This document shows, one piece after another, positions 9,156 through 31,370 of a stretch of 64,000 bases of DNA. The position numbers were made by a program, and so were the translations under genes. The DNA lies in the NCBI GenBank assembly GCA_973895155.1, contig OZ316891.1, forward strand, positions 1,479,324 through 1,543,323. Direction: 5' to 3'. Numbering within the stretch: the first letter of the stretch is position 1; every line of letters starts with the position of its first letter. This stretch comes from Marsupella aquatica (Eukaryota; Plantae; Marchantiophyta). A model generated the notes under the pieces. The model saw nothing but the letters and a program-made list of their open reading frames with translations, ran no database searches and was not told where the DNA came from.

Positions 9156-9970
9156 GTGAAGATGCTTGGACAGCTTCACAACAACAATGGGGAGTGGGTC
9201 AATAAGAATCAGCTCAGCAACCAAATTCGCAGCAGTTGGCAGATTGGAGTGGGCGAATTCACAGCCTTCTATGAGGAACTGACCATCAACGACACTCCAG
9301 AATCTATGATGCATGCTTCATCAGTGCGTTGGCTGGAAGTGGGACTGGCCAGCCAGGAACATGGGGTGGTCCTTCCCGAATAGGATGTGGGCACTTAATT
9401 CGCTGAGCATGGAGGGAGACACAGCCCAATTGAACAGGAGATGGGGACAAAACGGAACCCCCGCAGAGTGGAGACAGACATGTATGGCAGAAAGTCTGGG
9501 GCGGCTGGGTGGTATCAAAGGTAAGGATATTCATATGGAGACTCGTACAGCACGGTTTTTTTACAAACGGACAGGCTCACAGATGGGGAGTGTGTGAGGG
9601 CACTTGCGAGCGATGCAATCTTGAAACTGAAACCACTGACCACCTATTATGTCAATGTAACAAAGTGATTACCCAGTGGATGGAACTGAAGTCACTCCTT
9701 CGCCACACCATTACCCTGAATTTCCTGGGTGACACCTTATATGGATCGATTCAAACTGCACTCAGACTGCATAAGCGAAACCCGGGTCCGATTGTGCTGT
9801 TGATGGAATTATGCAACACCACTTGGAAGGAGCGCAATGCTATGTGTATTCGAGGTTCCTAGGGCGTATGCCTAGCTGGGTGATTCTGAAGACTACTGCT
9901 GATCACATTCCCGATCACATCAAGACTATGCTGAGCCCTAGCTGCACGCAACGGAGAACAAGACAACTAC
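9156..9970 (+). pseudogene. Frameshifted LINE ORF2 C-terminus (zf-RVT zinc-binding domain)
   Basis: KVRIFIWRLVQHG...CERC..ETETTDHLLCQC and WKERN motifs typical of plant L1 ORF2; broken across several frames. Confidence 0.85.
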
Positions 9971-11277
9971 CACTAGAAGAAAACGTCCCCTTTTGAGACC
10001 CTATGCTTTGTGACTTTAGGGAGACTTTCAAAAATACATGACTCCAAGTTTAGGGGAGTCATTGTTGTTACATTTTATCAACTGATTTTTGGGGGATATT
10101 TGTGAAAGTCATTCCTACAACTTCTGATAAAGTAGCAATTGTAACACTAGTAGGGCAGTCATATGTAAGTTGAATAAGCTACTCTCCATTACGGCATTCT
10201 GAAATAGAGTGCAAGAAGGATTACATGCACTCTAGACATCACGGAATGTTCCATTTACAACCCTTGACTTGCAACTTGCGGAGTCGGGAGCACTAGGTGC
10301 ACATAGAAGGAATGGGGGTTTAGGGTTGCAGAACTAGTTAAATGTCTTCATGTCAAGAGCATTGTAGCTAGTTATCCTAGCTAGCCTAATTAAACGTGCA
10401 TGGGAGTACTTGCCTCTATAATAGTAAGTCTTATGCTGCTCAATGGATTCCTTAGAGTTCATGGGCAACTTTGACAAGAATATTGGGGTGATATCATTTT
10501 CAATTCAGGGCTAAAGTAGTGTCTGGCCCCCATTCTTTGTCCACCCTCCCTAAGTGGCATGTGTAAGGGTTAATTTACAGTTGCGTTCTAAGAGGTTACA
10601 GTTGCGTTCATTTAATCTTTGCTCACAAAGTGTCGTGTCCAATTTGCTTTAGGGTACTAACATGTGTATCAATGGCTCATGTCAACGCAAAGTGGTCGAG
10701 GCTCATTGGGTTTGGTTCACTAAGTGTCACTAAGTGTTAAGGTATGCTTTGTGCGTGAGTGTGCCTTTGGACACGAGTTTAGGGTGCGCGGGTTTTGTTT
10801 AGGGTTTAAACACGCCAGCAGAGTGCAAAGTTCAGTTCAATGTGCGTGGGAACTCGGAGGTTTTTGTTTCAGAAAAACTCACTTGTCCATTACGGGGACA
10901 TTCGTCGTGCCTGAAGGTCGTCACATTGTGCGCGGTCTCACAAAGTGGGGAGTGTGCTTCGCGATCGGGGCAGTTCCTTTGCGTAGGGGAGTTTTGCGCT
11001 TGGAGCTTGAAGGTTTACCTTCAAAGCTCTAGAGCATTCAAGCTGAGAGGGCGACCGGCTTGCGGAGTGGAGAGGTGAGCTGCAGTGGACGACGAGCTCT
11101 AGGACTGGGAGGAGCTGTGGGCGGGCAGGAGCTGCAATTTGGGAGCTGCTCTGGCCGCCGGTCTGGCCGAGGAGCTACGAGCGGAGAGCAGCTGGAGTGG
11201 AGCTCGAGCGGAGTGGAGCTGGAGTGGAGTGCTTCTGTCACACTGCTGAGGATTGCTATGTAGCTTCAGTTTGGGCG

Positions 11278-11680
11278 GGGGTGCGAGCAGAGGTGCTGAG
11301 AGCGGCTCAGGTGCCAAAGGAGGTGGTGCGAGCGGAGGTGCGAGCGGAGGTGCTGAGAGCGGCTCAGGTGCCAAAGGAGGTGGTGCGAGCGGAGGTGTGA
11401 GCGGAGGTGCTGAGAGCGGCTCAGGTGCCAAAGGAGGTGCTGAGAGCGGAGGTGCGAGCAGAGGTGCTGAGAGCGGCTCAGGTGCCAAAGGAGGTGGTGC
11501 GAGCGGAGGTGCGAGCGGAGGTGCTGAGAGCGGCTCAGGTGCCAAAGGAGGTGGTGCGAGCAGAGGTGCTGAGAGCGGCTCAGGTGCCAAAGGAGGTGCT
11601 AAGAGCGGAGGTGCGAGCAGAGGTGCGAGCGGATGTGCGAGCGGATGTGCTAAGAGCGGAGGTGGTAAGAGAGGTGCTAT
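11278..11680. repeat. G-rich composite minisatellite (modules GGTGCGAGCGGA, GGTGCTGAGAGC, GGCTCAGGTGCCAAAGGAGGT) inside the CACTA element
   Basis: Directly visible tandem modules, about six higher-order units with lengths in multiples of 3. Explains the Gly-rich and Pro-rich ORFs on both strands. Confidence 0.9.
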
Positions 11681-13382
11681 TGGATCACTGAGAAGGCTGC
11701 AACCTCTCTATCTTATTCCTACTATCTGGCGGTTGCAGTTGGAAGGAGGGTCGAGTGGCGAACATTTTGTCAGTTGAGGACTCAGCTGCGGGTTTGTCAT
11801 TTCCTGGAGCTCAATCGCTTGCTACTAAGACTACTGTTGCTGCAATTGCAAGTTGCTTGATCATGAGCTACCTAGCTCCATTGTGAGTTGCCTCCCTATT
11901 CTCCTTGTTCTCCCTGTCTCCCCCTTGCTTGCAGTTACTATCGCCAGGAAGAATGTGTTTGGCCAAGATGCTAGATTGCAACTTGTCTTCTTGCTTCTAG
12001 CTCGTGTATATGCTGGCATCCGTGGGGGTTCCTCGAGTTTGAGTCTGCAGAGGAAGAGTCTATCATAGTCTAATTAAATGTGGGCCATATTACTCTGGTC
12101 AATGAATGAGTTCCCTGGAAATAGAACCTCTCTGATTATAGAGGTGCGATTTGGTCAGAATGTTTTCCCCTCTCATTGTATCCACTGATGCCAACTCACT
12201 TTCATCACCTCAATTCTGAACAATGAGCGTAGTCTCAGGCTCCATACTGCCTATACTGAATGGTCTAGCTGCGATGTCCACCTCGGCTGAAGTGAGCTCT
12301 GACTTGGAGCCTTAACATTTGTGTTCTGTGGGGCTGATTAGAGTTGGTTCCGTCCAGAAGCTGCTCTACTAAAGTGATAGAGCTCCGGCTTGGAGGTGGA
12401 TCTTCACTTTTTTGTGGGTCTGAGTGACTTCTGTCTAGCTGGGCTTAGCTGAGTCAGTAATACATTCAAAAGAGGTGAGTATCCCTGACCAACATTTATT
12501 TACTCTTGACCACGCCAAACTAATGGCGCTTCAATTTGAACTTTCTAAGTCTGACTGCTGACTCCGCTCCTTAAAACCCACCTTAATTATATTCATGTCT
12601 TTCTTTTGTGCATGCGCATAATGTCTTTCATTCAGTTTAACATTAAATGTGAGACAGGGCTCCATCCAGCTCTTCTAGATGACAAGAAGGCATTGATCAG
12701 TTGCTTTTTGATCTTTCCTCACCAAACAAGAAATCTTTCTTACAAGAAACCTGTCTTACAAGAAATCCAGCCTGGCCGAGAAGCTGCAAGTGGGGAGGAT
12801 GTCTGTAGAAATTTGTAAGGAGTGGTTTGTCTCACAATGCCATTGTTGATGAAACCTTGCTTCTGCTGATGAAACCTTGCTTCTTCTTAATCCAATGCTT
12901 GCTGCCTTGTTACAACGTTTGTCTAGTTGACCACTTCAGTGCCTATTCTTCATTTCCTGTTGTTCCATTTTTGGAAATTTATGCTTAAGGAACCTGCATT
13001 TCCTTCCCTGTCCCCATGCTATCTCCACTGCACCTTCCACTGCTAGCTATGTTGATTCCTTCCACTGCTAGCTCTAGACAATGATGCAGTCCAAATGCTG
13101 ATCAGTCTCACTGGGGGTGCCGGTGCAGACACAAATCGCACTGTGTGATTGTAGTTTTGCTTTGTCGGGACGAATGTGTTTGGCTAAGATGCTAGATTGT
13201 GGCTTATCTTCTTGCTTCCATTCGTGTATATTCAATTAGTAGAAGCTGGGAACGAAGTGAAAATTGAATTTCCTTATATTAAGCATCCTAACCTAGAAAC
13301 TCAATACATAAACTCCTGGAGTCCCTCGGGACATAAAAATGAGCCAAATTGTTTCAAAATTGGGAACCTGCACCCGCACTAC

Positions 13383-13724
13383 TCAAACAAATGTGTTGGG
13401 CTTGGTGGCCTTGTAAGTCGTCTTTAGCTTTCGTGATGGAGGTTGAATCTTGCGGTACGTCAAGGGGAACTTGATCTTTGAATCATGGAATTGCTTGGTA
13501 CTTTCTCGCTTGCACAGAGAGACAGGGACTGTCGTAGTCTTGATGATCTGGATGCAAGGGAACCGAACTCTATGACAAGAAGCCATCTCATCGTACATCT
13601 GCTCTACAACGATGTTCAATGTGGTATCACGATATTTCTTGTACATGTTGGGATAACCTGTACGACTCTGATACCTCACCCAGATATCGAAGTTCTTAAT
13701 TGTGGTGGGCTTCTTTTCGAAGAT
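13383..13724 (-). pseudogene. RPL18A: Captured last exon of 60S ribosomal protein L18a (eL20), with upstream splice acceptor, inside the CACTA element
   Basis: cag|[37 protein letters not shown]...[15 protein letters not shown]. No 5' exons are recognisable nearby, and several normally conserved residues are substituted. Confidence 0.9.
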
Positions 13725-14732
13725 CTGGTAGACACATTATTCAGCATTTGCTAACTTCAAAACTAGAAGGGTAACACATTAAACAACAGATAAACTCACA
13801 ACATCCTCCTTTGGTCCTTCAGAGTCTGTACTTTGATTATGAAGTTTGACTGAGTTTATGTTTACTAAAAGAATGTGACTGTGTAAGAGTTCCGTTTGGC
13901 AGTGGATTGGTTGAAGCACTTCATGCTAGTGTGTTGTCTACAGCTCTTCAACCAGCTTTCGTCTTCCTTGTCTTTCACCACTTACGATGACATCAATTCA
14001 GCTAAGACCATAGAAGGTTCCAAAGCATCTAACTTGTAAAATCGCATTCTGTTACATCAAGGACTAAGGTGTTGGGTGCCAAAGGAGACAGCACAACAAA
14101 CACGCTGAAAAGACTTCAGGACTGGGTTCAACAAGGTAGTGAAGGTGCTTAGAGCCTAGTAAGTATGCATTCTGTATCTTTCTCTGTTGATGTGAGCTTG
14201 TGCATAATGGGAGTTGTAGTTGGCAAGAGTTCCAAATATGAATAGATCCAGAAGTATGTGATCATGTACTTGCTCTATAAAGTTATGAAGATATAAGCAT
14301 TTTCTGTTAGACCAGGCAACTTGGGAGTTGGTAAGTGTCACCTGCATCTGAGGGGCTACACCGGGGGCATCAGTGGAGGTTCACTTGCACAACACGACAA
14401 CCAGTGAATTTTCTCTCTGCTGCAACCTGCAAGGTGAGACTTTCGGTCTTTCTGGATGAAAAAACAGGATTTTAATACGATTGATATACATGTCCGTCGA
14501 GAATATGGGTTTATCACCAAGCTCTTTGTCTTAGGAAACTCATAAACTTAGAATCAAATATGTACTATGCACGTTTCATGCTATGTGTATACTATGACCT
14601 GTAGTTGGAACCAAGACAATGAGTGGGAACTGATTAGTTTAGGTGGTTGCTGTTGGCGAGGCAAGTCAACCTCCTGCTCACCTTGCTCATCAAAGGACGT
14701 GAACAGAGGACATCACAACGAAAGCAACACTT

Positions 14733-15182
14733 ATGGTGAGGACCCGCAACGCTGAACATGTGCGACTTGCACGCAAGGCAGAGATGTTGCGCCTTGAGTA
14801 TGTCAGACTTGGGATCCTTCCAGCCCAGTCTGCATGGTACTTTGAGTACCCTGTTGTTTCCAGGAACAACTACAGCCGGCCTCTACCTGCTTCAGTACCC
14901 TTCCTGACATCCTTGGTATTTGTGTCTCTTGTACATGCCCCGCCACAAATTAGGTGCCAAGGGTGTGTACACAGTTGCCAATATGACTGTCCTGCCTGTA
15001 GGGCTTCTGGCCCAGAATTGGATGACCGTTCTCTTGGATGCCGATTTTTGCACAGAGCACAATGTATCATCTGGAACCACTCGCCATCTTGCAGTGTGCC
15101 TGGTGATGTCACTTGTCTAGCCCTCCCAGACCCCACCACCGGTGACTTTGGTGTCTACACATGTTTGGATCACATGCTCTAG
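14733..15182 (+). CDS. CACTA accessory gene 1: 149-aa Cys/His-rich putative zinc-finger protein of unknown family
   Basis: ATG-initiated intact ORF with CxxC-x3-C-x3-CxxC ... C..HxxxC ... YxCxxH spacing; co-oriented with the other element genes. Confidence 0.55.
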   Translation: MVRTRNAEHVRLARKAEMLRLEYVRLGILPAQSAWYFEYPVVSRNNYSRPLPASVPFLTSLVFVSLVHAPPQIRCQGCVHSCQYDCPACRASGPELDDRSLGCRFLHRAQCIIWNHSPSCSVPGDVTCLALPDPTTGDFGVYTCLDHML

Positions 15183-15799
15183 AGGACCACTTGTCACACC
15201 GCATGCACAGACCAGATACCATTGACCTATAGCTTAACACTCTGACTTCAACACAGAGGATATTTACTTAAAATTTTGATGTATGAGCAATTTTGGGTCC
15301 AGGGTTTAGGGTCAACAGTACATAACTTATATCCTATTATGCCTGCACTAAGCAAAATATCCTAATTTAAGAGGCTAGCAAACTCGCATAAAAGTCTCTA
15401 TTGAAAGACTGCTTTCATGACTGCTTTAACCTGGTGAACATTGCAACGTTCAATGAATTAATGGGCCATGTGATAACCTGTAAAATGTGATTTATGCATC
15501 ACTTATTTGTCTCAGCCACTATCATAGCCTATTTAGGATGTATAAATTTCAACCCTTATGACACTGCTTCATACCAATCCTCTTCGAAGAATGCGCGTTT
15601 TACATGTCACGACTATTGTATGTGATTCAAATGCATGAAATGTTGTTGCAGATCTCCTTTGGTGAATCATAGCCACAATTAAAATTGAGGTGTTGGTGGA
15701 GCAATTGTATTAGGGGATCAGGTTTGTGTGTGGGCTCAACATACCAAAAGTATGTCTGCTCTGCATCCTTGTGTGGCCATTCCAATTCATTGCAGTAGC

Positions 15800-15943
15800 A
15801 AATGCCTTTGTACCTTAAATGCTAAATATATTTTACTTTCTGTGCAGTCTGCTAAATTGTAGAGTCTATCTAAATGCCTTTGTACCTTAAATGCTAAATA
15901 TATATTACTTTCTGTGCAGTCTGCTAAACTGTAGAGTCTATCT
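15800..15943. repeat. 72-bp tandem duplication (2 near-identical copies)
   Basis: AAATGCCTTTGTACC...GTAGAGTCTATCT at 15800-15871 and 15872-15943. Confidence 0.9.
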
Positions 15944-15954
15944 CATGCGCAGGC

Positions 15955-16639
15955 ATGGCATGACCTAAAATTCAAGCCAAAAAGCGTGTGACAGAGGTGA
16001 GAAACACAGGTGTACTTGGGGCAGATGTTACTAATTAACTTCTCTGCAAGTCAGATTTTCCAGAAGGCAGCTCATTGTTGTGCCATTTGTGACGATGGTG
16101 GGGGCCTGGTCATTTGTGAGGGCCCTTGCATGAGACATTTCCACCTCAACCTGGAGTCTGACCTTGCTGCAGAAAACAACTGTCCAGGGGTGGGCCTCCC
16201 GTCAACACACCAGGGAGACTGGATGTGCACTGATTGTTTGGAGAAGCAGGCTAAGTGTGCACAGTGTGGGAAGTTGGGGTCCTATGAGGGCTCTGTTGAT
16301 GCTGCAGCAAATGTTAGGAAATGTCCAGACCGTTTTTGTGTGAGATTTTTCTGTTTTGAGTGTTTGCCTGCTCATGCCACAGCTTGCCCACTTCATAGGT
16401 GCAAGGCATGTGGTGAGCATGATCATGAGTACTGGACTGACATAGTCCACTGTGCTAGGTGTCCCACCATGTGGCACTATCATTGCCTGAAAGATCGTCA
16501 AGCAGAGGGTTATGCTTGTGATAGAGAAATCTATGATCACTCTGCACATGGTGTTGATCGATGGATATTTTATTGTCATCGCCATGCCATTGATCCTACC
16601 TTGCGCACTCCTGTGAGAGATCACATATCTTGGCTGTGA
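15955..16639 (+). CDS. CACTA accessory gene 2: stand-alone EDM2-like atypical PHD-finger cluster (predicted exons 15955-15996, 16055-16639; codon 3 is TGA in this copy)
   Basis: CAICDDGG-LVICEGPCMRHFH, CxxCGKLGS, CPLHRCKAC, CARCPTMWHYHCL and IFYCHRHAIDPTLRTPVRDHI align in order with the PHD region of Arabidopsis EDM2 as recalled (CAICDNGG..CEGSCLRSFH; CPLHKC; CRRCPKSYHRKCL; IYCQEHEIDEELLTPVRDHV). Confidence 0.85.
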
Positions 16640-17230
16640 AGCTGAACATTGTACATGCACAGTGCACCTGATGTGGATGTACTATTTTTTGAGATTGCAG
16701 AGATTCCAATTTTGAAAAGGAGTTGGGTAGGCGAGTTTATATAGGCAGCACTTATCTTGTGCTCTGGCGTCAGTGGCTGGTACATGCCTATAAAAACTTA
16801 TCCTTACAAGCCTTCTTGGAAGTATTTAGGCTGAGTGGTCATTTTCATAAACACTTTCATCAGACTGCTAAATTAAAACAGGACTTCTAAGTTGTAAGCG
16901 TATAAATTATCAGGCATGCGATTAATCAAATTGCCCTATAAGTTTGTCATTGAACGTATCCTCCTTTACAACAAAATATGTATGTGCCATGACAAGTTGG
17001 TTGCACTTCATTTCACCTTCGATATGGATTTTGTAGTATATATTCAAACAATGTCCTGCATCCGTGCAGGTGCCTAGTACGTATTGTTCACATATCCCTT
17101 GTACCTATCAAAATTGGACCTGAGCACCAGTGGGCCAGATCAACTCAAAAAGCAGGAATTTTGTTGTCCTTGTATTGTCAGGTGAACCTATTCTTCCAAA
17201 ATTCACTGTCATCACGTAGGGTGTGTGTAC

Positions 17231-18103
17231 ATGGAGCCTGGGAAACGTAGAAAGTGTGACCACCCAGCAGTGTTTACAGGGGTCAGAGCCATTTTGGTCC
17301 ATGGCCAGCATGGGTTGACCAAAGTGCATTGGCCAACTGTACAGAAACAATTCTCTGAGCTCCATGGCACTGTAGTTCAGGACATCACTCCAGAGACTAC
17401 ACATGTTGTTGCAGGGACATGGCTATCAGTGATAAAGAAGTGGTCATGGTCCTACATGAATTCTGCAATTACTAAGCAAGGCCTAAAAGTAGTTGAGGCC
17501 TCTTGGATCACAGATTCCATAGCACATCAGATTGTACAGGATACTGAGCAATATGAGCTGTGGGAGGATGAAGAAGCTACTGCATCAGCTTGGGCTGAAC
17601 AAGAAGTCTGGGAAGCAAAGGCACGGCTTGCTGATGTCCAATATGGACCTGTACTCAACAAAGGACAGAGCTCTAGAAGGCTGAAGAGTATGTTGGTTGA
17701 GGAGACGAAGCAACCAACCCCCATTCTGAAAGGGCTGAGCATGGTATTTGTGGAGGCGGGAATTGGAGAGGTTAAGTGCAAAGTGTACAAGTCCACGGTG
17801 CTTGACCTAGGTGGGACAGTGGAGGAGAATATAACAGAGGACACCACTCATGTCATTACTAAGTCATATCCCAAAGCCTGCCGCAAGTTTGGGAAAGGAG
17901 ACATTCGCTTTTATGTCATGTCCCATAATATGTTTGTGGTTTCATATGCTTGGCTTGTGGAATCAGTAGCAGCTGGGAAGTGTCAAAACCCAATGGACTA
18001 TGATCTTTTTGAGGCCTGGCCACGGAAGGGTCAGGATCCTTACAGAGAGGACTATGAGACAACAAGTGAGGAATGGGTCATTAGCGATTCTGAATCAGAG
18101 TGA
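17231..18103 (+). CDS. CACTA accessory gene 3: intronless protein with two BRCT domains (DNA polymerase lambda-type BRCT), basic NLS-like N-terminus and acidic tail
   Basis: Two repeats with BRCT hallmarks: FTGV...LHGTVV..ITPETTHVVA...VVEASWITDS and LKGL...LGGTVEENITEDTTHVIT...VVSYAWLVESVAAGK. N-terminal KRRK. Confidence 0.82.
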   Translation: MEPGKRRKCDHPAVFTGVRAILVHGQHGLTKVHWPTVQKQFSELHGTVVQDITPETTHVVAGTWLSVIKKWSWSYMNSAITKQGLKVVEASWITDSIAHQIVQDTEQYELWEDEEATASAWAEQEVWEAKARLADVQYGPVLNKGQSSRRLKSMLVEETKQPTPILKGLSMVFVEAGIGEVKCKVYKSTVLDLGGTVEENITEDTTHVITKSYPKACRKFGKGDIRFYVMSHNMFVVSYAWLVESVAAGKCQNPMDYDLFEAWPRKGQDPYREDYETTSEEWVISDSESE

Positions 18104-18635
18104 GGAGTAGTAGCATCAGTTTGGACACAAGTTTTTTTGTATAAATCAGATCATTGAAATAAATGTGATCTTTGAACTAATGTACCTTGTTATGGTTGGT
18201 GGCAGTTGGGCTTATTTTACTGTTGGCGGATTGTTGTTTCTTGCTGCCTGGGGGTGTCACTGTAAACGTACTGGGTGGGCTCAAATCTCGGCGGTGAGAT
18301 ATCTGATACCGCTCTCACACCTATGCCTATGACTATACATGATTGGACTCTGATATGGTCATGGGTGTACATGTAGAGGCGGTACATTTGAGGACAGCTG
18401 TGGAGGTGGTGACACCCTCAAACATTGAGGAATTTTGTGTCATTCACTTGACAATAGGTACACTACTCGCAAACCTGTTTTTTTCTTTTGGGGTGGTTTA
18501 GGGTTTGTGAGAATTTATTACACGTTATGTTAACTCTTTTGGCACATACAGTCAGGGATGTATGGAACACAAATACCACCATTAGGCATCCCTGTTCACT
18601 GCTGTCCATGACTGCAGAGCTTCCAGCCTGTTACA

Positions 18636-21600
18636 ATGCACCCTGGTCACCACCCTCCCCAAACCCAGCCCAGGGCACAGGCACTGCCTTTGCATCATCC
18701 CACAAGGATATCACGCCATGATAATAAGCTTTGGCAGCGTGAAAGGTTACGAACCAGACTTTCAGGAGCCAGTAGGATGAGATGTCCTTGTGCAATCTGC
18801 CAAGGATCCCGTACCAGGGGTCTGAATGAGGTTTGGCGGCATATCGCGGTTCATGGAAGAGATCCACGACATCGAGTTTGGAATGATCCTGCAGAGGAAG
18901 ATTCTTCCGACGAGGAGTGGAGGTTAGAATTTGATGCTGCCAATGCTGCAAGACGGGCAAGTGAGGTTCTGCCTCGTGCATTTGAAAATGTTGTAGCTGG
19001 TCTCTGTGGGTTGTCAGCTCTCCAACGGGATGGTGCTCAGGCAGCACCACGTGACGAAGGAATTCATGTGGAAGAGATGGTGAGAGACATCTTCCAAGAC
19101 TTGGATGCATTTCATGATGGGCTGGACAATGAAGAGGATACGGCTGCAGATGCAAGTGTGCCCCCTGTCGAAGTGCCTCTTGATGAGTTTGAGATAGGGC
19201 AGGAAACCCCTGGGCATGATGGGATGTTTGGCTCTCCACTACAAATACAGGAAGGCAGGAAGTCTTTGTACCCCGGTAGCAAATGTTCTAAACTGGGATT
19301 TTTCATCATGTTCCTGAACATTTGCGGCAACCACAATGTCCCCAACGTTTTGGTTTCTGAGTTGTTGGCATTCTTGCGAACAACTGTGCTACTAGATGGT
19401 AATATTTTGCCCAAGAACATGTACGAGGCAAAAAGATGCATATCTAATCTTGGATTGAACTATGATTCGATCCATGCCTGTCCTGATGGGCATGTTCTTT
19501 TCAGAAAGGAGTATAAAGAATCGTTGACATGCCCTAAGTGTGGGAAGCACAGGTATCGGAACTCAGGAGTATAAAGAATCGTTGACATGCCCTAAGTGTG
19601 GGAAGCACAGGTATCGGAACTCAGGAAAGTCTATGGTTCCCGCCAAGGTACTTCGTCATTTTCCACTCATTCCCAGACTTCAGCGGATGTTCAGAAGCCG
19701 TGCCATCTCGGAGATGATGACTTGGGCAACTGACAAGAAAAGTGATGATGGGCTACAACGACATGCTGCAGATTCAAGGCAATGGAAACTCATAGATGAG
19801 ATGTATCCCGAATTTGCTGCTGAGCCAAGGAATGTCAGACTTGGGCTGTCATTGGATGGGGTAAACCCATTTGGAGACAAGAACAACAAATTTTCGTGCT
19901 GGCCTGTAACTATTTTGAATTATAACCTTCCTCCTTGGATGACTACAAAGCGATTTTTTGTTTTGATGGTCCTACTGATACCAGGGCCAGACAGTGCTGT
20001 ATCTGCCAACATAGATGTGTTTCTGGCTCCCCTAGTGGAGGAATTGAGAAAGCTTTGGGAGGAAGGAGTTCTCACATATGATGTCCTACAGAGGCTTGGG
20101 AGGTTAAACCCATTCATCCTTAGAGCCATTGTCATTCTGACTATAGCTGACTACCCAGCCCATGGGATGATATCAGACCAAACAACAAAAGGATATTGTG
20201 CTTGTACTATCTGTGGGCGCAATGTCACGAGTGAGTACTGCAGAGCCCTGCAGAAAGTGATATACATGGGCCATCGTCATTTTCTGAAGGCAGATCACCC
20301 TTACAGAGAAAGACAGGCACTGATTGCACACTTTGGCAATGAGATTGAGCAACGTGGACCCCCGGCACGAGTGACCAAAGAGGAGATCAGGCAGTGGGGA
20401 GCACTGAGGGATGACTATATCAAACGAGGGGGCAGGGAAGATGGAGTGAGTGATCCAATAAAGCGATATGGTGTAAAAAGACTGAGCATATTGGACTTGG
20501 AGCTCAAGTACTGGAGGGTAAGCCTCTTGGAGTTGATGCTAATTGGGATACATGTTTTGGTTCAGAGCATGCATTCATTTCGAAGAGAGAGACTAAACTT
20601 GAGGCATTTCCTGACGCTTTTGCATTGCAACGATGCAGGAGTTTGAGCCAAGCAAACATAACATTGATGTTATGCACATTGAAAAGAATATTTGTGAGAG
20701 TCTACTCAGATTCTTGTGTGGAGAGAAAGACACTGGTTCAGTGAAATTGGATCTTGAACAGAGGGGAATGAAACCCCATCTTTGGTTGAGGCCACATGCC
20801 CACAGAGCTGATGTGCTCTTGAAGTACCAAGCACCCTATGTTCTGACAGACACAGAGTGGGAACTATTTGTGCAGAGGTTGAGTTCTTTGAAGGTTCCTT
20901 CAAACTATGGCAGTGCTTTCAAGAAACATATCATGACTAGAAAGCTTGGTAGTATGAAAAGCCATGACTACCATATGTTGATGCAACAGGTGTTGCCTTT
21001 ATGCCTGAGGGGCCTGTTGCAGAAGCCTGTTCGTACTGTGATCATGCGACTCAGTGATGTGTTTCGTCGTATTTGTGTGAAGGTTTGGGATGAAACACAC
21101 TTCCCACAACTGACAGAAGATGTCGCTCAGGTGCTGTGTGACCTGGAGATTTATTTTCCTCCCGCATTTTTTGATGTCATGACCCACCTACTTGTCCATG
21201 TTGTGGAAGAGCTACACCAATTTGGGCCTGTGAGTGCTCGTTGGTTGTACCCTTTGGAACGGTACATGAAGCTACTCAAAGGTCACGTGAGAACATATTA
21301 CAAACCTAAAGCAAGCATGGCTAAAGGTTACATCAAGGATGAGACTCTGGGATTTCTGACCGAATACATAGCACAATATGAGCATGTGAAGACCAGGGTG
21401 TGGAATTCTGATGAGGAGGAAGGGGTGATAGGTGAAGTACTGGAAGGGGCTGCAACCACAAAGAACCTGACCATATCTATGAGAGACTTGGCACATGACT
21501 TTGTATTGCACAACACTGTGGTGATGGAACCCTGGATACAGTGAGTGCATACATGTGCTATAATCCAGTTCATGAGCTTAAATGTTGTGTTCGTGTGGTT

Positions 21601-22312
21601 TTCTCCTTTAGCCTGTTCATGTTTACCCAAGCTAATGCTGTGTGGTTGTTCGTTCAGGGAGTATGAGTCATTGAAGGCAGCCCATCCCACTGCAGGAACA
21701 ACTTTTCCAGGTTTCATGGAGTGGATCAGAGTGGCAATTAGAGAGCATCACGAGACCCACCCAGACATGGATGCAGATGTTTACCTACTGTCTAATGCCC
21801 CTAGCCTGAAAGTGAAGACTTACAAACGGATGAGAGCATATGGGAATCACTTTCGAGTGAAGGATGGTGACAGTGCCTACAGGGTGACGAATGACTGCGG
21901 GCTCATCACTGTATTTGAGCAACAGAGCCACAATCACGACAGGGCCTGGATGGAGATGGGATATGTGGGAGAATTAGTTGACATATGGGCTCTGGACTAT
22001 GGGGCGGTGTCCAGTCCTGTGATTCTTATGAAAGGTTCATGGGTGCGGCAGGATTGGCTTGGTAACAGGGCTACCATGAAGAGAGACAACGACGGTTTCT
22101 TGCTGGCCAATTTCAGAGGGAAATTGCCCGAATGGTCTGAGCCATTTGTGTTTCGTAGTCAGGTGGAGCAAGCTTTCTTCCTGGATGTGGAAGACTCCCC
22201 AGGTTGGCGTGTAGTGTGTCATAAACAGGCCAGGCAACGTCGGATGGAAGGATCAAACCTTGAGTTTCATTTACACTCTCATAGTGCCTTTGATCATCGG
22301 CGTTCAGACTAA
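18636..22312 (+). pseudogene. CACTA TnpD transposase (Transpos_assoc, Transposase_21, DUF4218, DUF4216), frameshifted by a 58-bp duplication; introns about 20518-20638 and 21542-21657
   Basis: CPCAIC..H, IHACPDGH, LRHFPLIPRLQRMF, RNVRLGLSLDGVNPF, DVMHIEKN, MKSHDYH, FFDVMTHLLVH, YPLERYM and EPFV..SQVEQAFF motifs. Confidence 0.95.
19508..19623. repeat. 58-bp perfect tandem duplication inside TnpD
   Basis: GGAGTATAAAGAATC...TATCGGAACTCA at 19508-19565 and 19566-19623; shifts the reading frame. Confidence 0.95.
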
Positions 22313-22579
22313 GTGCCTGTAGTTCATGATAGCGGGGACTTCATTCCTGTGACAAGGGTAGATGCATTTGCTAAAGGAGGCGAATTCAAAGATGCAGATG
22401 CCAACAGTGTGCCTGTGCCATGAGTAATGTGAATTGTTTGCATGGACATTAGTGAGGGGAAGGATGTGTAATAAAGTAATTCTAATGCAACACAGATGTA
22501 TGGATGGATGCCTGGTGATTGTGGTTGCATTGTGTTATACGGGGTGATCATAGATGACATGTTTTTGTGGTCCAGTAGG

Positions 22580-25500
22580 ATGGAACAGAGTGACACAGAG
22601 ATGTGTGAGTATGAAAGGAAAGCTATGGAACACCGAGCATACGTGAAAGCCAAAATCGCAGAACTGGATCTGGAAAAGGATGTGGCTGAATTGTAAGGGA
22701 ACGATTCTCAACTACACCCCTCCGCTGAGTTTGTGTGACATGAATAGTTCAATGTGGCACTGAAATTGTGACTATATTCTCATATTGGAATGTCGTAGAG
22801 CCACAGCATTTTCAAAGAAACAAAAGGAGTACCCAAGAAGGGTGACCAGCACTATCTCTGGGCCTGTGCGTCGGAGTGACAGGTTGAGCAAGAAGGTCGT
22901 ACCTACAATGGCAGAATGTGGAGATGACATTGATGCTGCACAGGTGGGTGCAGACACTAGACAAGAAGATGCAGATGATGAGTATTTTCCAGAGGAAATG
23001 GATGAGGATGGGGGTTATGAAGATGAATACATTGCAGAGCAGCCCCAAAAGAAACAGGTAAGTAGTTTTCCCAACAAGGTTTTGAGTTAAAAACTCTTGT
23101 TTAGAGGTTTCATATGTTCAGTACTACACATATGTACCTTGCTTAGTTCCTGACATTGTAATTGGTGATGTGATGCAGCGTCCTGCCAGTTCTGTTTTGC
23201 CTTCGAAGCCTGTGCATGCACCATACCAGCAGGGGGGGCTGACCTCTGATCAAGGTTGGCAAGGTGGTAGTAGTGGTAGATCCCAGGCTGGTGCCCAATA
23301 CTATGGCAGGGGGCAAGCTCTAGGTTATGCCCGTGGTAGAGGCTGAGCAGGTCCAAACCCACAATCTCGTGGGTATGGACGTCCACCTCAACCATGGGGA
23401 TGTGAGTATATATCTATATGCTAGTTCTTTGTGAAGGCATGGCACTCCTGAATTTCAGACTGCATATCAATTTTTGACATTGTTTGGTATGTATTGGATT
23501 CAGACAACATGAAATTCTGTCCACCTGCCATTGCATGCAGATTCTGCCCAACCTGATTGGGCAAATGCTAGTAATGATCAGTTCCAATGTCCACAAGGAC
23601 AGACATGGGTTGAACCAGGTTGGGAGGATGGTGGTGGGTCGTGGAATGAACAAGGTTGGGAAGGTGGTGAAGGTAATTGGCAGGGATATCAAAATACAAT
23701 ACCTACAAACGCTGGAAGAGGGGCAGGTAATGTCTGATCTTGTCAGCAATGGAAGAACTCATTATATCTGGAGTCCATTCACGTGGGGGGGGACTCTGCA
23801 CATGTATAATGATAGAAAATGTATGTGTGCAGGTTGGACAATCGAACCATCGACTCAAGTATTCACTAATGCCCCTATGCAGATGCAGCACGGAAGGGGG
23901 ACAGGTATGTTGGTGAATGTTCAGTTGTTTTCCTACAGTTTGTACTTAGTTTTCAGTACATATGTTTGCACACACATACCTAGAAAGTGACATCATCCGG
24001 CCCCTGTACTAGGCTGGACAGGTGGTCCAAGGTCGCAACAATTTCAGAGTGCAGTCCTTGCACATGCATCTACAGGCAGAGCTACAGGTATGTATGTTTG
24101 AAGAATTTTTCTTGAAGTGAAGCATTGAATGTTGCCGTCATCCATTCTGCTATATGTAGTTCTCAAGCATGAATGGCATTGTATTTTCCCAGGTGGCTTC
24201 AGAACCCCAGGTAGGGTGAATGAAGGGGTGGCCAATACAACGCCCAGTACTACCGAGAGAAGTGCACGAGGGGAGGTGACAAAGAAAGGGAACGTAAAGT
24301 TGAATGAGAGACAATGGGTGGATGCTGAGTGTCCTCGCAAGAACCGATGGCATGCTGATTTGAAAGCTGAAGTATTGCGTTGGTTAGATGTGAGTGTTAT
24401 TAATTTTAAAAAACAGCATCCAAAAGATTGGAAGATTGTATGTGAAAATGTTGCTGCCAAATGGAATTATGTGGGCAGTGATGATGGCGTGGACATAGGT
24501 TGCCTAGAGAGTACAGCAGGTAAAATCATCAAGCAAGAGAGGTGGAGAATGCATAAGGCTTGGAAGGAAGGTGGGGAGAAGCCAGATATGCCTCCACCAG
24601 CCAGTTGTGATGATAAAGTGTGGGCAAGGTTAGTAGCTTATTTTGTAACAGATGCTTCAAAAAAGAAGAGTTCACAGATGACCGAGGCCAGGTTGAGTGT
24701 TCAGAACCCTAATCTGACAGGAAGGACCGGCACTGCACCGACAGCTAAACGTTTGGTAAGAATGAATGGCCTAGCTAAGTAATTTATGCTACACTATGTA
24801 CTGTTTTTTAGTGTAAACCCATACATGTAAACTTTGTTTTTAAGTGTACGTTCCTTGAATATTGATCGATAACTTGTGTTTGCCATGCATGTGCAGAAAG
24901 CCCAATTGGGGCAAAGCCCTTCAAAAGAAGAGTTGAGGGCTGAAATTGTGAACACCCAGGCTCAAGAGGGTGCATCTGAATCCTCCAAGCATGTAAGTTA
25001 TATGAGTTCTGATTGGTAATTGAATGACCTACGTTGAATTTCAGGTGTACACTGTATATAACATTGATTGTGCATATATTGCCCAACATTTCATATGGAG
25101 TGATTGAACCTATACCCCTGTGTCATGTAGGGAGGTGGATCTTCACTTACAGAGATAAGTGGTCGTTTGAAGGCTGTCGAAACATGTCTTCCAGAGATCA
25201 ATGAACGTTTGAATTCATTGACTGACTTGTTCCATGTGAACTTCAAGACATTAATGGAAGCTGTTGTGTCGGTGAGAGATAAAATTGATTCCAATTCTGC
25301 AGGAGTTCCACCATCACCACTTGAGGTGGCAAAGTCGATGCACTCTTCTGGCATGGCAACGACATGTAGGCTTGAAGGTAAGGCCTTTACAACTGTGTGG
25401 GATATGATTATTAAATGTATAGTTTGAATTGACATTGTTTGTTGAATGTGTTATTTTTAGTAACATATATTGTGGTTGTTGTGTCCATAGAGAATAAGAC

Positions 25501-26287
25501 AGGTGCTACAGAGAAGAAGTATGAGAACCTGGCAAATACTCGCTATAATTTAGAGGCAACAAAGTTGCAGTCTGTACAAGCAACTTGTTTGACAGAGGGC
25601 AGTCAACCATGTTTGGATGAGGATGACATTGGCAAGGGAGTGGATGATATCAATGTTGGGGCAAATGAGGATATCAGCAAGCATGACAATGATACCATTG
25701 AGCCAGATTCATGCTATGTAGATCTTGACTCCATTGCAGAGATAAATGATTTGCAGAATGTATCATTCTCAATGACAGGTGTGCCTCTTGTTGAGATAAA
25801 TCCAACCAAAGAGTTAGTTGGTATGACACTCCCAGGTGATGAACCTGCTACTGTGACAGTCCTAACAGAGGAACCTACTGAGCCTAGCTTCACTACTGTG
25901 AAGAGAGGAAGCATGCGCACACGAAGCAAGTCTGCTGGTGGGAGCAGAGCCATGTCAAAGGTTTCATACAAACCTCCAAGAACGGTGCTGGCAGAAAGAT
26001 CTAAGGTGGAAGTGGGGAAAGCACCTAATGCTGAGGGACAAAGTGGCTTGTTAGCTCTTGATGAGAGTGGAACACGAGTAGGATTTGGCAGAGTGCAGGT
26101 TGGTTCCACAACGTTCCATGGCAAGAGGATTCCCCCAGGTTATTCAGTAGTGTTAGTCACATTACTAGTGAAACCTAAAGCTGTCCTTCCCATTCCAAAC
26201 ACAAATGATGATCCTCCTCAAAAGACACTTGGAGATGCTGCAGGTTCTTTGGTATTATGGCCAAGCAAGTTCATAGAGGATCCATAA
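22580..26287 (+). pseudogene. Multi-exon CACTA TnpA-like gene (GW-rich low-complexity region, Transposase_24-like core, C-terminal Transposase_23/DUF8039-like domain); in-frame TGA at 23344
   Basis: Phase-consistent GT-AG exons include 23179-23401, 23541-23726, 23833-23904, 24013-24087, 24193-24755 and 24898-24992. Motifs WARLVAYF..KKKSSQMTEAR..NLTGRTG, LGQSPS and C-terminal FHGKRIPPGYSVV...LPIP..TLGDAAGSLVLWP. Confidence 0.75.
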
Positions 26288-26784
26288 CAATGTCATGCCA
26301 TTATTTGTTTGTAGTGTGAGTCATGTTATGTAGATTTTAGATGTCAAGAAGCAATACAAGAATCATGTCCTCTTGGAGATTCATAGTATCATGCATGTGC
26401 TTTCAGTTATCTCATCCTGCAGTCATCAATTATGAGTTCCTGTTTTGTCTGAATTACATTGATCACATTGTAAACTATTCCATTGGAATTCAAATGATCT
26501 TCATTTTTTAGCAAGATTGTGATTGTGTTTAATTCTTATGAATGTTTTATGTAGGATCTGCTTATATGATGCTTTGTTTCATGTGGATGTCATTCATGCT
26601 ATGTTCATTTCTTGTATTCAATGTGTTATATTTCTAAAGTTAGAACATCAGGTTTCTATGTATTGTAATGTCGAGTGCTCTCTCTCCTTATGAACTGTCC
26701 CTCTGTGTTCATTAGTCATGGTTATAACTTGCATGTGAACCTTATTAGTTATAAACATGAGTATATAGAGTCCCAAATGGTTCT

Positions 26785-27110
26785 GTTGTGTGACGCGGGC
26801 CAGGGTCTCCATTGGTCTCTCCTGTGACACTAAATGGTCACACGCTAGTCGTTGTTGAATGCGGGTAAGTCATGCATGTGACTTACGATGTGACTCGCTG
26901 AAGTCATATTGCAGTCACGTCGAAACAAGGCTAGACTCCACAATAAAGTCACAGATCAGTCACAAATGGGTATCAAGCAAGTTGCAAAGCCCAGTATCAA
27001 TAGTGACTACCATTTTTTGGTCTCAACTTTTGCAACTCCAAGGGTCACAGCGTGGGTCAAGTCACGTTGAGTCACAATGAAGTCACATGAGCCAAAATGA
27101 GTCACATATT
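26785..27110. repeat. CACTA 3' subterminal repeats (GTCAC/GTGAC core in both orientations), putative TnpA binding sites
   Basis: More than a dozen GTCAC/GTGAC cores within about 330 bp of the 3' TIR; a few related motifs occur just inside the 5' TIR. Confidence 0.75.
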
Positions 27111-29157
27111 GCGGTCTCAGTTCACCTCGGATTCTTCTAGTGTACAAAGGGTGGTTGACGAGCTCCATTTTGTCCTTCGCCCATATATGGGCCAACAGCA
27201 AGATTCCCAACCCTATGATGGGTAATGAAAATAACTAACTGCAAAGGCTTGATGTTGGGGCAGGAAGTCAGAAGGCTCATTCTTCAGAATGGTTGGGACT
27301 CACAGTCCTTCGACTTGCCATGCACAAGTCATGTTTGACACAGAAATTCTAACACAACAGGTATCACAGAGACAGGTTAGTTAGCAATTGGAGCAAGCTA
27401 GGCAGACCACAATTGGTGGGACTATTCTTTGCCCAATTCCGAAAGGTTGAAGCATAGAGTTTTGGTTGGGAAGGCTAGGATGATCTTGTTATGAGGTAAC
27501 TAGTCCTAGACCAGACTAGGAGGTTACCTTTACCATGGTTACCTCAAGACACTATATATACACCCGGTTGATCCCCAACCGAGTGATTCATTCATTCATA
27601 CATTCATTCAATCTCTCTCCCTCTCCAACTATGTATGAATCCTATATCACAACACGTTATCAGCACGACTCTCGGAGGCTGAGCACTTGAATTTTTTTTA
27701 GGGATTCGACAAGTGACAAAAATTAGACACTTGAGGGAATCCCAAGACAAAATCCCTTCAAGGAAACCTTCATTTGAGAGTCCATGTCAACCTGGCGTTG
27801 GAAATTGATGGAGTATCCTCTAAGAGAAACTGACTCCCAAGAAATTAGAAGAAACAAAATCAGAAGGAGAGGCTGATCAGACAAAGAGTTGAACCAATGG
27901 ATTGACCCTTATGGGATCATTAATAAAAGCTTTAGAGGAATTGAGTCTGAAATGCAAGATTGAAAGTACGAAGCATGATTTATGGAAGGAGGAGAAGAAA
28001 CACTGTAGCGCAAAGTCCATAGAGAAACCAGGATAAAGCTTGGGCTGGAGTCAATCAATCCAATCAAAGAGACCTGATTGAATAGAGGCAGAGCACAATC
28101 TACAAAATTTCAATCAAGGTGAGATCTGAAAAGGCACCACACCCTATAGAGAACGAATGTTGCATTAGGGCTCAACAACCGGAGGGTGAAAAGGACTAAA
28201 GGAAATTTGAGGGATGGAAACCTCATGAGAAGACAACATAGTGATCACGGACGCAACCGCGAAGCCATGCAAAAGGGGGAGAATCGATGCACAAGCCCAA
28301 AACGGCAAAATTTGGACCAGGCTTTTCGAGAAACCATCGACAAAACTTGATAAGTGCAAAACCCCCATACTTGCAACTCATTATAAAGAGTATTTTTACT
28401 TACAAAAGAATGAGATCACTTAAAGCATCTTTTTCAAAGCTTTTAAATCACTTTAAGATACATGTGTCATCCTTAACATAAACCTAAATCACAAGCTTAC
28501 ACTCTCATTTTACAAATGTGAATACTGTGCCTTTACACAACACATTGAATACATATAACATGGTTATTACACCATTAAAATCACTTTCCACCATAGGGGG
28601 AGGAAAGCACATTGTACCCACAACTATCTCCCACCTCCAAATGTCATTTTGGTTCATTCACCTTCTAGTACCATTTGAACTTATACACCTTCTGGTATCA
28701 TTTGATCTCATAAGATCCAAACGGACTCAGATAAGGGACTTTCTATGACTAACAAAGGTATGTAGAGGTTAACTCAGTCTTGGGTTGAACTATGGTTAGT
28801 ATGTTAACTAGGGTTAGAGTAAACCCTAGTTGAAGAGTTGGTCCTTATCTCTTTAACTTCTATGTGGTGTGAGAACACACAAGAGAGTTCTCAAGAGAGA
28901 ACACAGTGATATATATAGCATGAGATGAGAGCTTGAAGAGATGGGAGCTATGGTGATGCTTGAGTAGACACATAACTGTTAATAAAGCTTGGTCTTCCCG
29001 TGGACATAGCCAACCTTGAGGCAAACCACGTAACTATTGAACACGTGTATGTTTGGAGTGTATTTCCTGATCTGATTTCTCCCCACAAGGTAAAGGTAGA
29101 GATGATTTGATAATGGGCAAAGCCCCTAATCTCATCTATACATGAGTTAATGAGGAG

Positions 29158-31370
29158 CTGAGCGACTCAACCGCACATTGTTGGAGCGAGCAAAGAGCAT
29201 GTTGAGCCACTCTAAATTGCCACAAATCTTTTGGGCGGAAGCTGTCAACATAGCTGCTTATCTCGTAAATCTCTCTCCTACTCGAGCAATTACTTACAAA
29301 ACCCCCTTTGAGCTATGGCACAATCGACCTGCTGATTATTCAAAGCTTAAGGTTTTTGGCTGTGAAGCATATGCACATGTTCCTAGCAACAATAGGACTA
29401 AGCTAGATCCTAGAGCCCAGAAATGCATTTTTCTTGGTTATCAGCGTGACGTTAAAGGATATCGATTGTGGGATCCAGTTGATTGCAAGTTACTTGTTAG
29501 TCGGGATGTATCCTTCAATGAAGACAAATCATTGAAGGAGGGGGAGATAGATCAATTCCCTACTACTAACAAAGTGCAATCTCCTCCTCTAGAGGATTTA
29601 AGAAGAGAGGATGTGTCAAAGGAAGAATATGTTGACACTACTATAAGGCAAAACACACTACAATCAGATCAGCCAGAGTCTTCAGTGCGAAGAGGAACTT
29701 GTAAACGTCAAGCCCGGGAAAGGTATGGAACTTGGCTTCCTTCTGATCAAGTGGATTTGGATGAAGAATCTATTGATGTATTGGTGACAGAAGATGGAGA
29801 TCCATCCTCATTTCGAGAGGTCCTAGCTTCTATGGAGAAGCAACAATAGCAGGCGGTGATGCGCATGGAAATGAAATCACTTCATGATAACAAGACTTGG
29901 GAACTCACAAGTCTACCTAGTGACAAGCAGACTGTTGACAGCAAGTGGGTGTATAGGAAGAAAGATGGACCCACGGAGGATGCTGAGAAGATATTTAAGG
30001 TTCGGTTGGTAGCCAAGGGTTTTACTCAACAGAAAGGTATAGACTACAATGAGGTTTTTTCACTCGTAGCAAAGTATTCAACAATACGTTTGCTATGTGC
30101 TCTTGTAGTTTTATTTGATCTGGTTTTAGATCAAATGGATGTTGTCACGACATTCTTATATGGATCGTTGGATGAGGTGATTTACATGAGGCAACCAGAG
30201 GGTTTTGTGCAAAAGGGCAAGGAAAATTTGGTATGCAGGTTGCTAAAATCCTTGTATGGATTAAAGCAGAGTCCAAGGCAGTGGAACAAGCGTTTTGATG
30301 AATTTTTGAAATCGCTTGGATTTGTGCGAAGCGTGTACGATCCATGTGTTTACATCAGGCGTGTGAACAACACAGGTTTTAAGCTTGTCATCCTTGTACT
30401 TTATGTGGATGACATGCTCATTGCAGCACAGGATAGGGGCGAAGTTGATAAGCTTAAGTCCCAACTCAGTTTTGAGTTTAAGATGAAGGATTTGGGCACA
30501 GCCAAGAGGATCCTAGGCATGGAGATTGTCAGGGATATTAACAAAGCCAAACTTTGGCTGACGCAAAAAAGATATGCAGAGAAGGTACTCTCAAAATTCA
30601 ACATGGCAGATGCTAAGGCTGTGAGTGTTCCTTTGGCAAGGCATTTCAATATTTCTGCAGCATTTTGTCCATCGGATGCTACAGAAAAAAGTTTGATGTC
30701 CAAAGTTCCTTATGAAAGTGCTGTGGGTAGTTTAATGTATCTCATGGTATGCACCCGACCAAACATAGCTTATGCTATTAGCAAGGTAAGCAGATACATG
30801 GCAAATCTAGGAAAAGTTCATTGGGAAGCAGTGAAATGGATTTTGCGCTACATCAGAGGTTCTACTAAGAAGGGTTTATTGTTTGATGCAAGTTCAAACA
30901 ATATGAAAGGTCTTCAAGGTTATGTGGATGCAGACTACGCAGGTGATCTGGATAAGAGGAGATCGACAACTGGATATGTATTTACACTTGCTGGTGGATG
31001 CATTAGTTGGAAGTCTACTCTCCAAAAGTGTGTTGCAAAGTCTACTATGGATGCCGAGTATGTAGCAGCAGCAGAAGCAGCGTCAGAGACCATTTGGTTG
31101 AAAAAGCTTGTCACGGAGATGGGTTTATCACAAGAGTGTGTATATCTTCATTGTGACAGTCAAAGTGCAATTTACACTGCCAAGAATCAGGTGATGGATG
31201 GCAGGGTAAAGCACATTGATGTCCGCTATCATTTCATCCGACAAGCATTATCGGATGATGAATTTGAGCTTGTCAAGATTGATGGAAAGCTTAATCCAGC
31301 GGATGCTTTTACCAAAGTATTAGACTCCAATAGTTTTTCAAGGCATTGTAATTATTTACAAATATTGTAA
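29158..31370 (+). pseudogene. Copia pol fragment: integrase C-terminal part, reverse transcriptase and RNase H, with in-frame TAG at 29847-29849
   Basis: AERLNRTLLERAKSML, KLDPRAQKCIFLGY, RLVAKGFTQ, LLKSLYGLKQSPRQW, LYVDDML, GYVDADYAGD, KHIDVRYHFIR, NPADAFTK. Confidence 0.96.

Follow-up and report, generated by a model that had tools for sequence, protein, structure and literature searches.

Chromatin readers are linked to transposition in RAG2, through its PHD finger, and in chromoviruses, through their chromodomains. Another mobile element that encodes a histone-reader fold is Rehavkus, in which the PHD finger is fused to the transposase (PMC6446971). Among plant DNA transposons, extra genes with a captured host domain under selection are represented by VANC and KAONASHI (KIU, which carries Ulp1) of the VANDAL Mutator elements (PMC13317346); accessory genes of the KIU/VANC type are also treated in PMC5735166 and PMC10398659. 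VANC targets DNA motifs with demonstrated anti-silencing (PMC13317346), and the transposon anti-silencing factors that we found tested in print (VANC/KIU) recognise DNA motifs. PMC13317346 also covers Pack-CACTA elements, in which host-derived sequence lies between CACTA termini.

H3K9me2 is among the marks bound by the PHD fingers of EDM2, which is connected to ASI1 via AIPP1 and thereby favours distal poly(A) sites, according to PMC7529245, PMC7472560, PMC9910501, PMC4980392, PMC5364540, PMC3632883 and PMC10241880. Its architecture consists of an RFD, acidic regions, a PGR, a methyltransferase-like ELP domain and a tail rich in proline (PMC7529245).

We describe here a stand-alone EDM2-type PHD gene carried by a CACTA element in the window (the whole 64,000-nucleotide stretch of Marsupella aquatica DNA that was analysed). 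Like VANC and KIU, it is an extra gene that a plant DNA transposon carries and that encodes a domain captured from the host; it differs in superfamily and domain, and no DNA-motif domain was found in it. Unlike the Rehavkus finger, which is a model for the adaptor proposed below, it is a separate EDM2-type gene on a plant CACTA element. Unlike Pack-CACTA elements, the element in the window has its own TnpD and TnpA, and what it carries is an ORF, old, diverged and domain-precise, rather than a recent genomic fragment. In the literature searched, which left most subscription papers and Repbase outside its scope, no title or opening of an abstract described an EDM2-type PHD gene on a transposon, and we found no such element-encoded factors for the plant lineage concerned. 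If the function proposed below is true, an element protein derived from the host's own heterochromatin reader would represent a second route, by way of histone marks or transposase tethering. Under the broadest and more doubtful of the proposals below, its anti-silencing would depend on histone marks instead of the DNA motifs that VANC recognises.

The CACTA element and its other genes

The PHD gene had been assigned to a transposon in the preliminary description. The ranges searched contained 45 left and 29 right CACT[AG] sites, which make 1,305 pairs; the pair 9971/27142 was the only one having both a terminal inverted repeat (TIR) of at least 8 nt and a target site duplication, with approximately 0.004 such pairs expected by chance. 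The TIR, CACTAGAAGAA, is a perfect 11-nt repeat present at both element ends and flanked by a TAC duplication. The element was classed as CACTA on its CACT[AG] inverted termini and 3-bp duplication and on its TnpD (Transposase_21) and TnpA-like (Transposase_24) genes. The PHD gene lies within it, and the window copy is thus carried by a transposon, as had been proposed. The features of the element are as follows.

9971..27142, plus strand: CACTA/EnSpm element of 17,172 bp, holding the PHD gene, other cargo and TnpD/TnpA
9968..9981, plus strand: 5' target duplication (TAC) and 5' TIR, from the terminal repeat search
13383-13736, minus strand: RPL18A (60S L18a) piece, intronless and without a start, antisense in the element (Pfam E = 7e-15)
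14733..15182, plus strand: Cys/His-rich ORF of 149 aa, an open frame whose C-terminal half is zinc-finger-like by eye
17231..18103, plus strand: twin-BRCT ORF of 290 aa, open, single exon (Pfam BRCT E = 9e-13, in two stretches)
18612..22312, plus strand: TnpD-like transposase in four overlapping frames (Transpos_assoc; Transposase_21, E = 2e-69; DUF4218; DUF4216)
22764..26287, plus strand: TnpA-like multi-exon gene (Transposase_24 at 24129-24779, E = 1.6e-4, below the cut-off)
27132..27145, plus strand: 3' TIR and target duplication (TAC), with GTCAC/GTGAC repeats clustered in the last 500 bp

The gene order inside the element is a glycine-rich repeat, the antisense RPL18A piece, the Cys-rich ORF, the PHD gene, the twin-BRCT ORF, TnpD and TnpA. 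GTCAC and GTGAC occur 9 and 5 times, respectively, in the last 500 bp of the element, compared to about 0.5 per 500 bp window-wide, and CpG is depleted along the element (observed/expected 0.21-0.63 per kb). Because an exact 58-nt tandem duplication at 19507-19622 shifts the TnpD frame, this copy of the element is probably non-autonomous; the duplication itself could be a recent mutation or an assembly slip. Near the 5' end of the element lies a tandem array of 57-nt units (11170-11680) with a Gly/Ser/Ala-rich frame and, on the opposite strand, a Pro/Leu/Ala-rich one. The insertion site seems to be the 3' end of a LINE-like sequence (9434-9970 / 27143-27230); a zf-RVT match lies upstream of the element, and short open frames flank the target site on both sides.

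The twin-BRCT ORF has full-length relatives of 294-295 aa with 54-60% identity. It is a second long-conserved cargo gene, and its product might bring repair factors to the breaks made in transposition. For the 149-aa Cys/His-rich ORF we obtained no meaningful Pfam match and no usable Atlas match (recognition 1368). This ORF sits at the heaviest contig coverage in three of the four runs, a measure that is not a copy number, and the RPL18A piece was covered by contigs in all four.

Run contigs were also used to follow other copies of the region. Part of the PHD gene, at a likeness of at least 80%, is present in runs under four organism labels, and in run X2 alone 1,281 contigs fell on 731 bp. 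In four runs contig depth, which is not a copy number, was much greater over 13-19 kb than over 10-13 kb. Over 9900-19000, 0-6% of contigs ran on into unlike sequence, and none of the run contigs was found to span the interval from PHD to TnpD.

Structure and lesions of the PHD gene

The features of the PHD gene are listed below.

15955..16639, plus strand: stand-alone EDM2-type PHD gene, a single exon of 226 codons if unbroken; a pseudogene in the window copy
15955..16078, plus strand: basic leader, about 40 codons long and containing the stretch that had been taken for an intron, with a conserved aromatic residue and a predicted short helix near its end
15961..15963, plus strand: lesion 1, an in-frame stop at codon 3 in the window sequence, where relatives have Arg
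16032..16035, plus strand: lesion 2, a 4-nt insertion causing a frameshift, missing from contigs of other copies
16079..16636, plus strand: three-finger zinc module of the EDM2/NSD type, from Pfam, pairwise alignment and ligand count

The preliminary description had given the gene a 42-nt first exon, an intron at 15997-16054 and a short basic leader interrupted by a stop. The leader read from the ATG at 15955 is indeed basic and has its stop at codon 3; it is, however, about 40 residues long and does not form a 42-nt exon. The sequence at 15997-16054 has the GT and AG of an intron, and the frame that is open in the window extends from 16001 to 16639. Nevertheless, the intron was rejected, because this stretch is coding in relatives, which read through it. 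The proteins P0001 (226 aa, 87% identity) and P0002 (220 aa, 81%) are single ORFs across it, and in tblastn residues 1-25 of P0001 matched 15955-16029 in frame 1 (56%), while residues 25-226 matched 16031-16636 in frame 2. When the window leader was read through, with an X at the break, it scored 111 against P0001, compared to 57 when spliced; the corresponding scores against P0002 were 61 and 52.

The four letters at 16032 were left out in contigs of other copies at 96.5 of 96.5 depth in run X5, 19,657 of 50,354 in X2, 8,037 of 11,037 in X4 and 144 of 362 in X1. A Phe or Trp is found 13 residues before the first zinc Cys in all 17 relatives with sufficient leader (two more were too short), and by our own count the codon for this residue in the window is 16040-16042, within the proposed intron. 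A metagenome locus search, which yielded two short loci (L001 and L002) from 198 pattern matches, gave the same picture: in both, the start codon, leader and module lie in one DNA stretch, and both are intronless. Among the run contigs no joint across the proposed intron was listed, nor was any RNA run listed for this region; since the runs are not recorded as RNA, neither result has a bearing on splicing or expression. From the ORFs of the relatives, the leader scores, the 4-nt indel and the conserved aromatic residue, we conclude that this is a single-exon gene with a leader of about 40 aa. A 4-nt insertion may therefore mimic a tidy GT-AG intron, a point to be borne in mind in annotation.

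As read from its sequence, the window copy is a pseudogene: the unbroken ORF would be a single exon of 226 codons, and two lesions interrupt it. The relatives P0001, P0002, P0009, P0137 and L002 start with MAR and so have Arg at the position of the stop. The insertion reads TAA-T-TAA, a form suggestive of an excision footprint. With the stop at codon 3 and the 4-nt insertion, this copy cannot make the protein. The variant table of the run contigs has no entry for the stop at codon 3; every variant in that table, however, lies at least 31 nt from some contig's end, and the contigs over codon 3 end within approximately 26 nt of it. Just upstream of the PHD start, at 15800-15943, is a 72-nt duplication with 97% identity between its copies, which may also be a recent mutation or an assembly slip.

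The zinc module and the stand-alone family

The portion from 16055 aligns pairwise to residues 225-432 of Arabidopsis EDM2 (P0167) with 30% identity (E = 3e-28), and three NSD-like PHD Pfam models (PF23011, PF22908 and PF23004) match in order, each below its curated cut-off. The protein had been described as consisting of the EDM2-type PHD cluster only and as ending exactly at the TPVRDH motif. The first statement was borne out: homology to the EDM2 module is full-length, and neither Pfam nor pairwise alignment revealed an RFD, acidic region, PGR, methyltransferase-like ELP domain or proline-rich tail on the ORF. So was the second: the stop falls four residues past TPVRDH, at the boundary where EDM2's module ends.

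The three-finger layout is common to EDM2 and the transposon protein, as are an insertion within finger 1 and, at the C-terminus, the TP-x-RDH boundary. EDM2 has 1,297 aa with RFD, acidic and methyltransferase-like parts; the transposon protein has 226 aa without them, a basic flank, a His-to-Cys change and a loop deletion in finger 2, and its gene is intronless and multi-copy on a transposon. It was not classed as an EDM2 orthologue, because the ORF stops after the module and the rest of the architecture is absent. Like the PHD1-PHD2-PHDvar fingers of NSD1/2/3, the module matches the Pfam models in order, and the family profile matches NSD3 (E = 2e-11) and NSD2 (E = 5e-10). These matches, however, cover positions 33-170 of 222 for NSD3 and 19-203 for NSD2, neither reaching the C-terminal motif, and the Pfam matches are mostly below cut-off. 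An NSD methyltransferase was rejected, because the transposon protein lacks the SET and PWWP domains that accompany an NSD PHD cassette; a VANC-like identity was rejected as well, since only PHD-type Pfam models matched at E < 0.01. Four host-type proteins, P0011 (from the liverwort Calypogeia), P0029, P0037 and P0043, also end a few residues from TP-x-RDH; truncation at this boundary is thus not confined to the stand-alone family.

At each of the 24 aligned positions read as zinc ligands the window copy has Cys or His. Over nine family rows the exceptions were a Tyr, a His-to-Cys change and gaps where one member is truncated. Loss of the ligands, which the preliminary description had named as evidence against a reader, was therefore not found. 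PHD1 aligns with AIRE PHD1 and keeps the acidic DGG motif and G-x-W-x-C. In H3K4me0 readers, acidic residues before the PHD finger contact the H3 tail. An acidic residue within eight positions before PHD1 was found in none of the nine family rows, compared to 42 of 42 host rows (a criterion taken from the host rows examined rather than from a published source), and in 1 of 19 members of the wider family. In place of the acidic flank is a basic leader of approximately 35-55 aa, with a net charge of 0 to +9 in seven members. In finger 2, the His-to-Cys ligand swap is present in 9 of 9 family rows (38 of 42 host rows have His), and a loop of about 20-25 aa present in EDM2 is deleted; a second conserved host His/Gln is Ala in all nine. 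Because the acidic patch is gone in all nine family rows, the H3K9me2 reading of EDM2 cannot be assumed for these proteins. The preferred mark is likely to differ from EDM2's, and, given the missing acidic residues, histone binding may have been lost rather than changed.

A search of 1.84 billion representatives gave 238 proteins at E ≤ 0.001. The best seven of the 238 are 166-245 aa long with 44-62% identity and rank above all long EDM2-type proteins. Among the 150 matches listed, 95 have at least 600 aa, and these are 32-47% identical. Of 11 longer or host-type matches looked up, the named ones were PHD proteins of plants or algae, with the Arabidopsis EDM2 cluster among them. The stand-alone proteins have a common size of about 190-245 aa; P0001, P0002, P0004, P0007 and P0186 end within three residues of the C-terminal motif, and P0003 within eight. 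The gene therefore belongs to a conserved family of same-size proteins, in agreement with its description as stand-alone and EDM2-like, and is not a one-off fragment. No longer fused forms were found among 190 candidates in a weak search, which missed EDM2 proteins found by another; 20 pattern matches in viral contigs and 59 in prokaryote genomes yielded no family locus.

For the tree, 57 sequences were chosen from about 180 proteins and six were dropped because their first-finger pattern was unmatched, leaving 51 modules. A branch supported at 100/100, whose stem measures 1.51 changes per column, split the nine stand-alone rows from the 42 others, among which are sequences from liverworts, lycophytes, ferns, algae and angiosperms. 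The tree was midpoint-rooted, without an outgroup, a named moss or hornwort EDM2 or the host's own EDM2, and the statement that the family descended from EDM2 thus rests on similarity. By these comparisons the family is old, distinct and previously unannotated. It is likely to have descended long ago from EDM2's PHD module, since the two share the finger-1 insertion and the C-terminal motif, which NSD matches do not reach. High identity to the host EDM2 gene had been given beforehand as grounds for doubting a separate reader gene; a recent copy of that gene is unlikely in view of the 32-47% identity of the full-length matches, which do not include the host's own EDM2, and of the length of the stem. 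A recent Pack-CACTA fragment was rejected on the same range of identities, with the same limit on the comparison, and on the lack of an intron.

The window protein has 43-44% identity to L001 and L002, which are both disabled. In the three pairwise comparisons among them, pS was 0.75-0.76 and pN 0.32-0.41; synonymous sites are saturated. Among close copies, 11 of the 27 listed module variants are synonymous, which is more than the 21% expected when all changes are considered (P = 0.014) but not significantly above the 33% expected for transitions (P = 0.25). None of the 27 falls on a zinc ligand. Seven of 20 aligned database relatives switch mid-domain into unrelated sequence, and no other element genes were found on L001 (1.9 kb) or L002 (1.5 kb). 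A selected transposon gene would be expected to show prolonged constraint alongside a large number of dead copies, and it is likely that the gene was under selection while transposons carried it.

The fold was predicted for P0001 with a 51-row alignment, 40 rows of which are host-type. This model had a mean pLDDT of 86 and a pTM of 0.81, was ordered from about residue 30 and placed the short leader helix at residues 30-33; a model made with a family-only alignment had a pLDDT of 61. With the better model, the rows listed by Foldseek were nearly all PHD cassettes (PZP, NSD PHD-C5HCH and double-PHD), many of them solved with H3 peptides, although all matches were partial, with a query TM-score ≤ 0.31 and rmsd mostly above 4. 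The family-only model gave no Foldseek match at E ≤ 0.001; in VIA-align its best matches were middling: NSD2 PHDvC5HCH (Z 5.5, rmsd 3.4, 75 residues aligned), followed by the Ehd3 tandem PHD (Z 5.4, rmsd 5.4, 98 aligned). A PHD-cassette fold is thus credible for the modelled protein, and its ligand is not predictable from the fold.

Possible roles of the protein

We tentatively favour a role in which intact relatives of the window copy encode the element's own chromatin adaptor, which would hold the TnpA/TnpD machinery on nucleosomes; we prefer this to a decoy or mimic of EDM2, to passive cargo and to an adaptor that does not bind histones. The module probably binds nucleosomes or histone tails, and the basic leader would be a nuclear signal or DNA contact. 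The protein has neither a catalytic nor an RNA-binding domain, nor one known to bind specific DNA sequences, and such a reader would therefore need a partner for specificity. TnpA binds subterminal repeats, and TnpA/TnpD would be the simplest choice; the complex might then guide excision, insertion-site choice or local reactivation, a sequence of steps that we offer, taken as a whole, with some reserve. More doubtful is the broader proposal that a CACTA lineage domesticated EDM2's histone-reading module as a counter-silencing or targeting protein, with the BRCT and zinc-rich ORFs as an accessory cassette.

An adaptor would be consistent with the element ends and TnpD/TnpA, the same-size family with its 100/100 clade, the kept ligands and the low pN relative to pS. 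It also agrees with the repeat-like behaviour of the gene (the 1,281 contigs on 731 bp) and the low share of contigs (0-6%) running on into unlike sequence, which are indirect evidence of linkage for close copies, and with the intronless and disabled state of the distant loci, the credible PHD fold and the tail-binding motifs (DGG and G-x-W-x-C) kept in PHD1. Precedents are the selected captured domains of DNA transposons, KIU Ulp1 and VANC (PMC13317346), and the PHD finger of the Rehavkus transposase (PMC6446971). Several results tell against it. Linkage to an element was seen only for the window copy, and L001 and L002 show no other element gene; the synonymous signal among close copies is modest (11 of 27); the Foldseek matches are partial, and the good model leaned on host-type rows (40 of 51). 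Finally, the absence of acidic residues before PHD1 (0/9 compared to 42/42) means that histone binding may be lost.

A mimic or decoy of EDM2 would read H3K9me2 and either shield that mark from silencing factors, compete with ASI1-AIPP1-EDM2 or promote full-length element transcripts. Masking of H3K9me by a transposon PHD protein is possible, though unsupported; the homology to the EDM2 module along the whole length of the protein fits such a role, as do the reader-only form, which would be the usual dominant-negative shape, and the CpG depletion along the element, expected after long methylation. The same holds for the reported binding of H3K9me2 by EDM2 PHD fingers and the promotion of distal polyadenylation over intronic heterochromatin by the EDM2 complex (PMC7472560, PMC9910501 and PMC7529245). 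The changes fixed in the family, which touch the N-terminal flank of PHD1 and also PHD2 (loss of the acidic patch, His-to-Cys in finger 2, His/Gln to Ala and deletion of the finger-2 loop), and the absence of the RFD, acidic and methyltransferase-like domains nevertheless weaken the case for an EDM2-like function. Moreover, a masker without sequence specificity must act genome-wide, unlike the motif-targeted VANC (PMC13317346). We consider this role unlikely.

Passive cargo, that is, a lineage-specific short host EDM2 paralog conserved as a host gene, later captured by this CACTA family and now decaying, is improbable. It would account for the two lesions of the window copy, for the startless RPL18A piece on the same element and for the weak skew of close-copy variants to synonymous changes; the short L001 and L002 gave no link between the distant relatives and transposons, and captured genes commonly end as pseudogenes (PMC13317346). 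Against this, the distant relatives at 43-44% identity are intronless and disabled, unlike host genes, and among 17 members looked up there is not one that an annotated plant proteome lists as a named gene. The adjacent BRCT ORF likewise has diverged relatives of the same length, and no listed variant (0/27) strikes a ligand.

Plant BRCA1/BARD1 have a layout of PHD plus twin BRCT, which the pairing of these domains in the element recalls. An adaptor that has lost histone reading and, together with the twin-BRCT protein, brings DNA-repair factors to transposition breaks would suit the adjacent, co-oriented PHD and BRCT genes, each with conserved stand-alone relatives, the BRCA1 BRCT structures that are the best PDB matches of the BRCT ORF (E about 0.002) and the lost acidic patch before PHD1, but it rests on adjacency, PHD1 retains its tail-binding motifs, and we regard it as the least probable of the four.

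Whichever role applies, the family is a natural, minimal and well-folding EDM2 module with defined substitutions, which helps to ask which residues set EDM2's mark preference.

The content of the window is plant-like by Pfam, with an ABCB transporter gene and a Copia element in addition to the large DNA transposon:

27487-34860: Copia-type LTR element, its terminal repeats 168 nt long and 99% alike
36173-43621, minus strand: ABCB-type transporter gene; the part coding for its N-terminus contains a 39-nt tandem repeat

In the Copia element, a nested 300-nt direct repeat (28843-29142 / 32289-32588) surrounds the RT region. Nested inverted repeats at 48066-48501, with arms of 59 and 52 nt, form a long MITE-like hairpin of approximately 320 bp.
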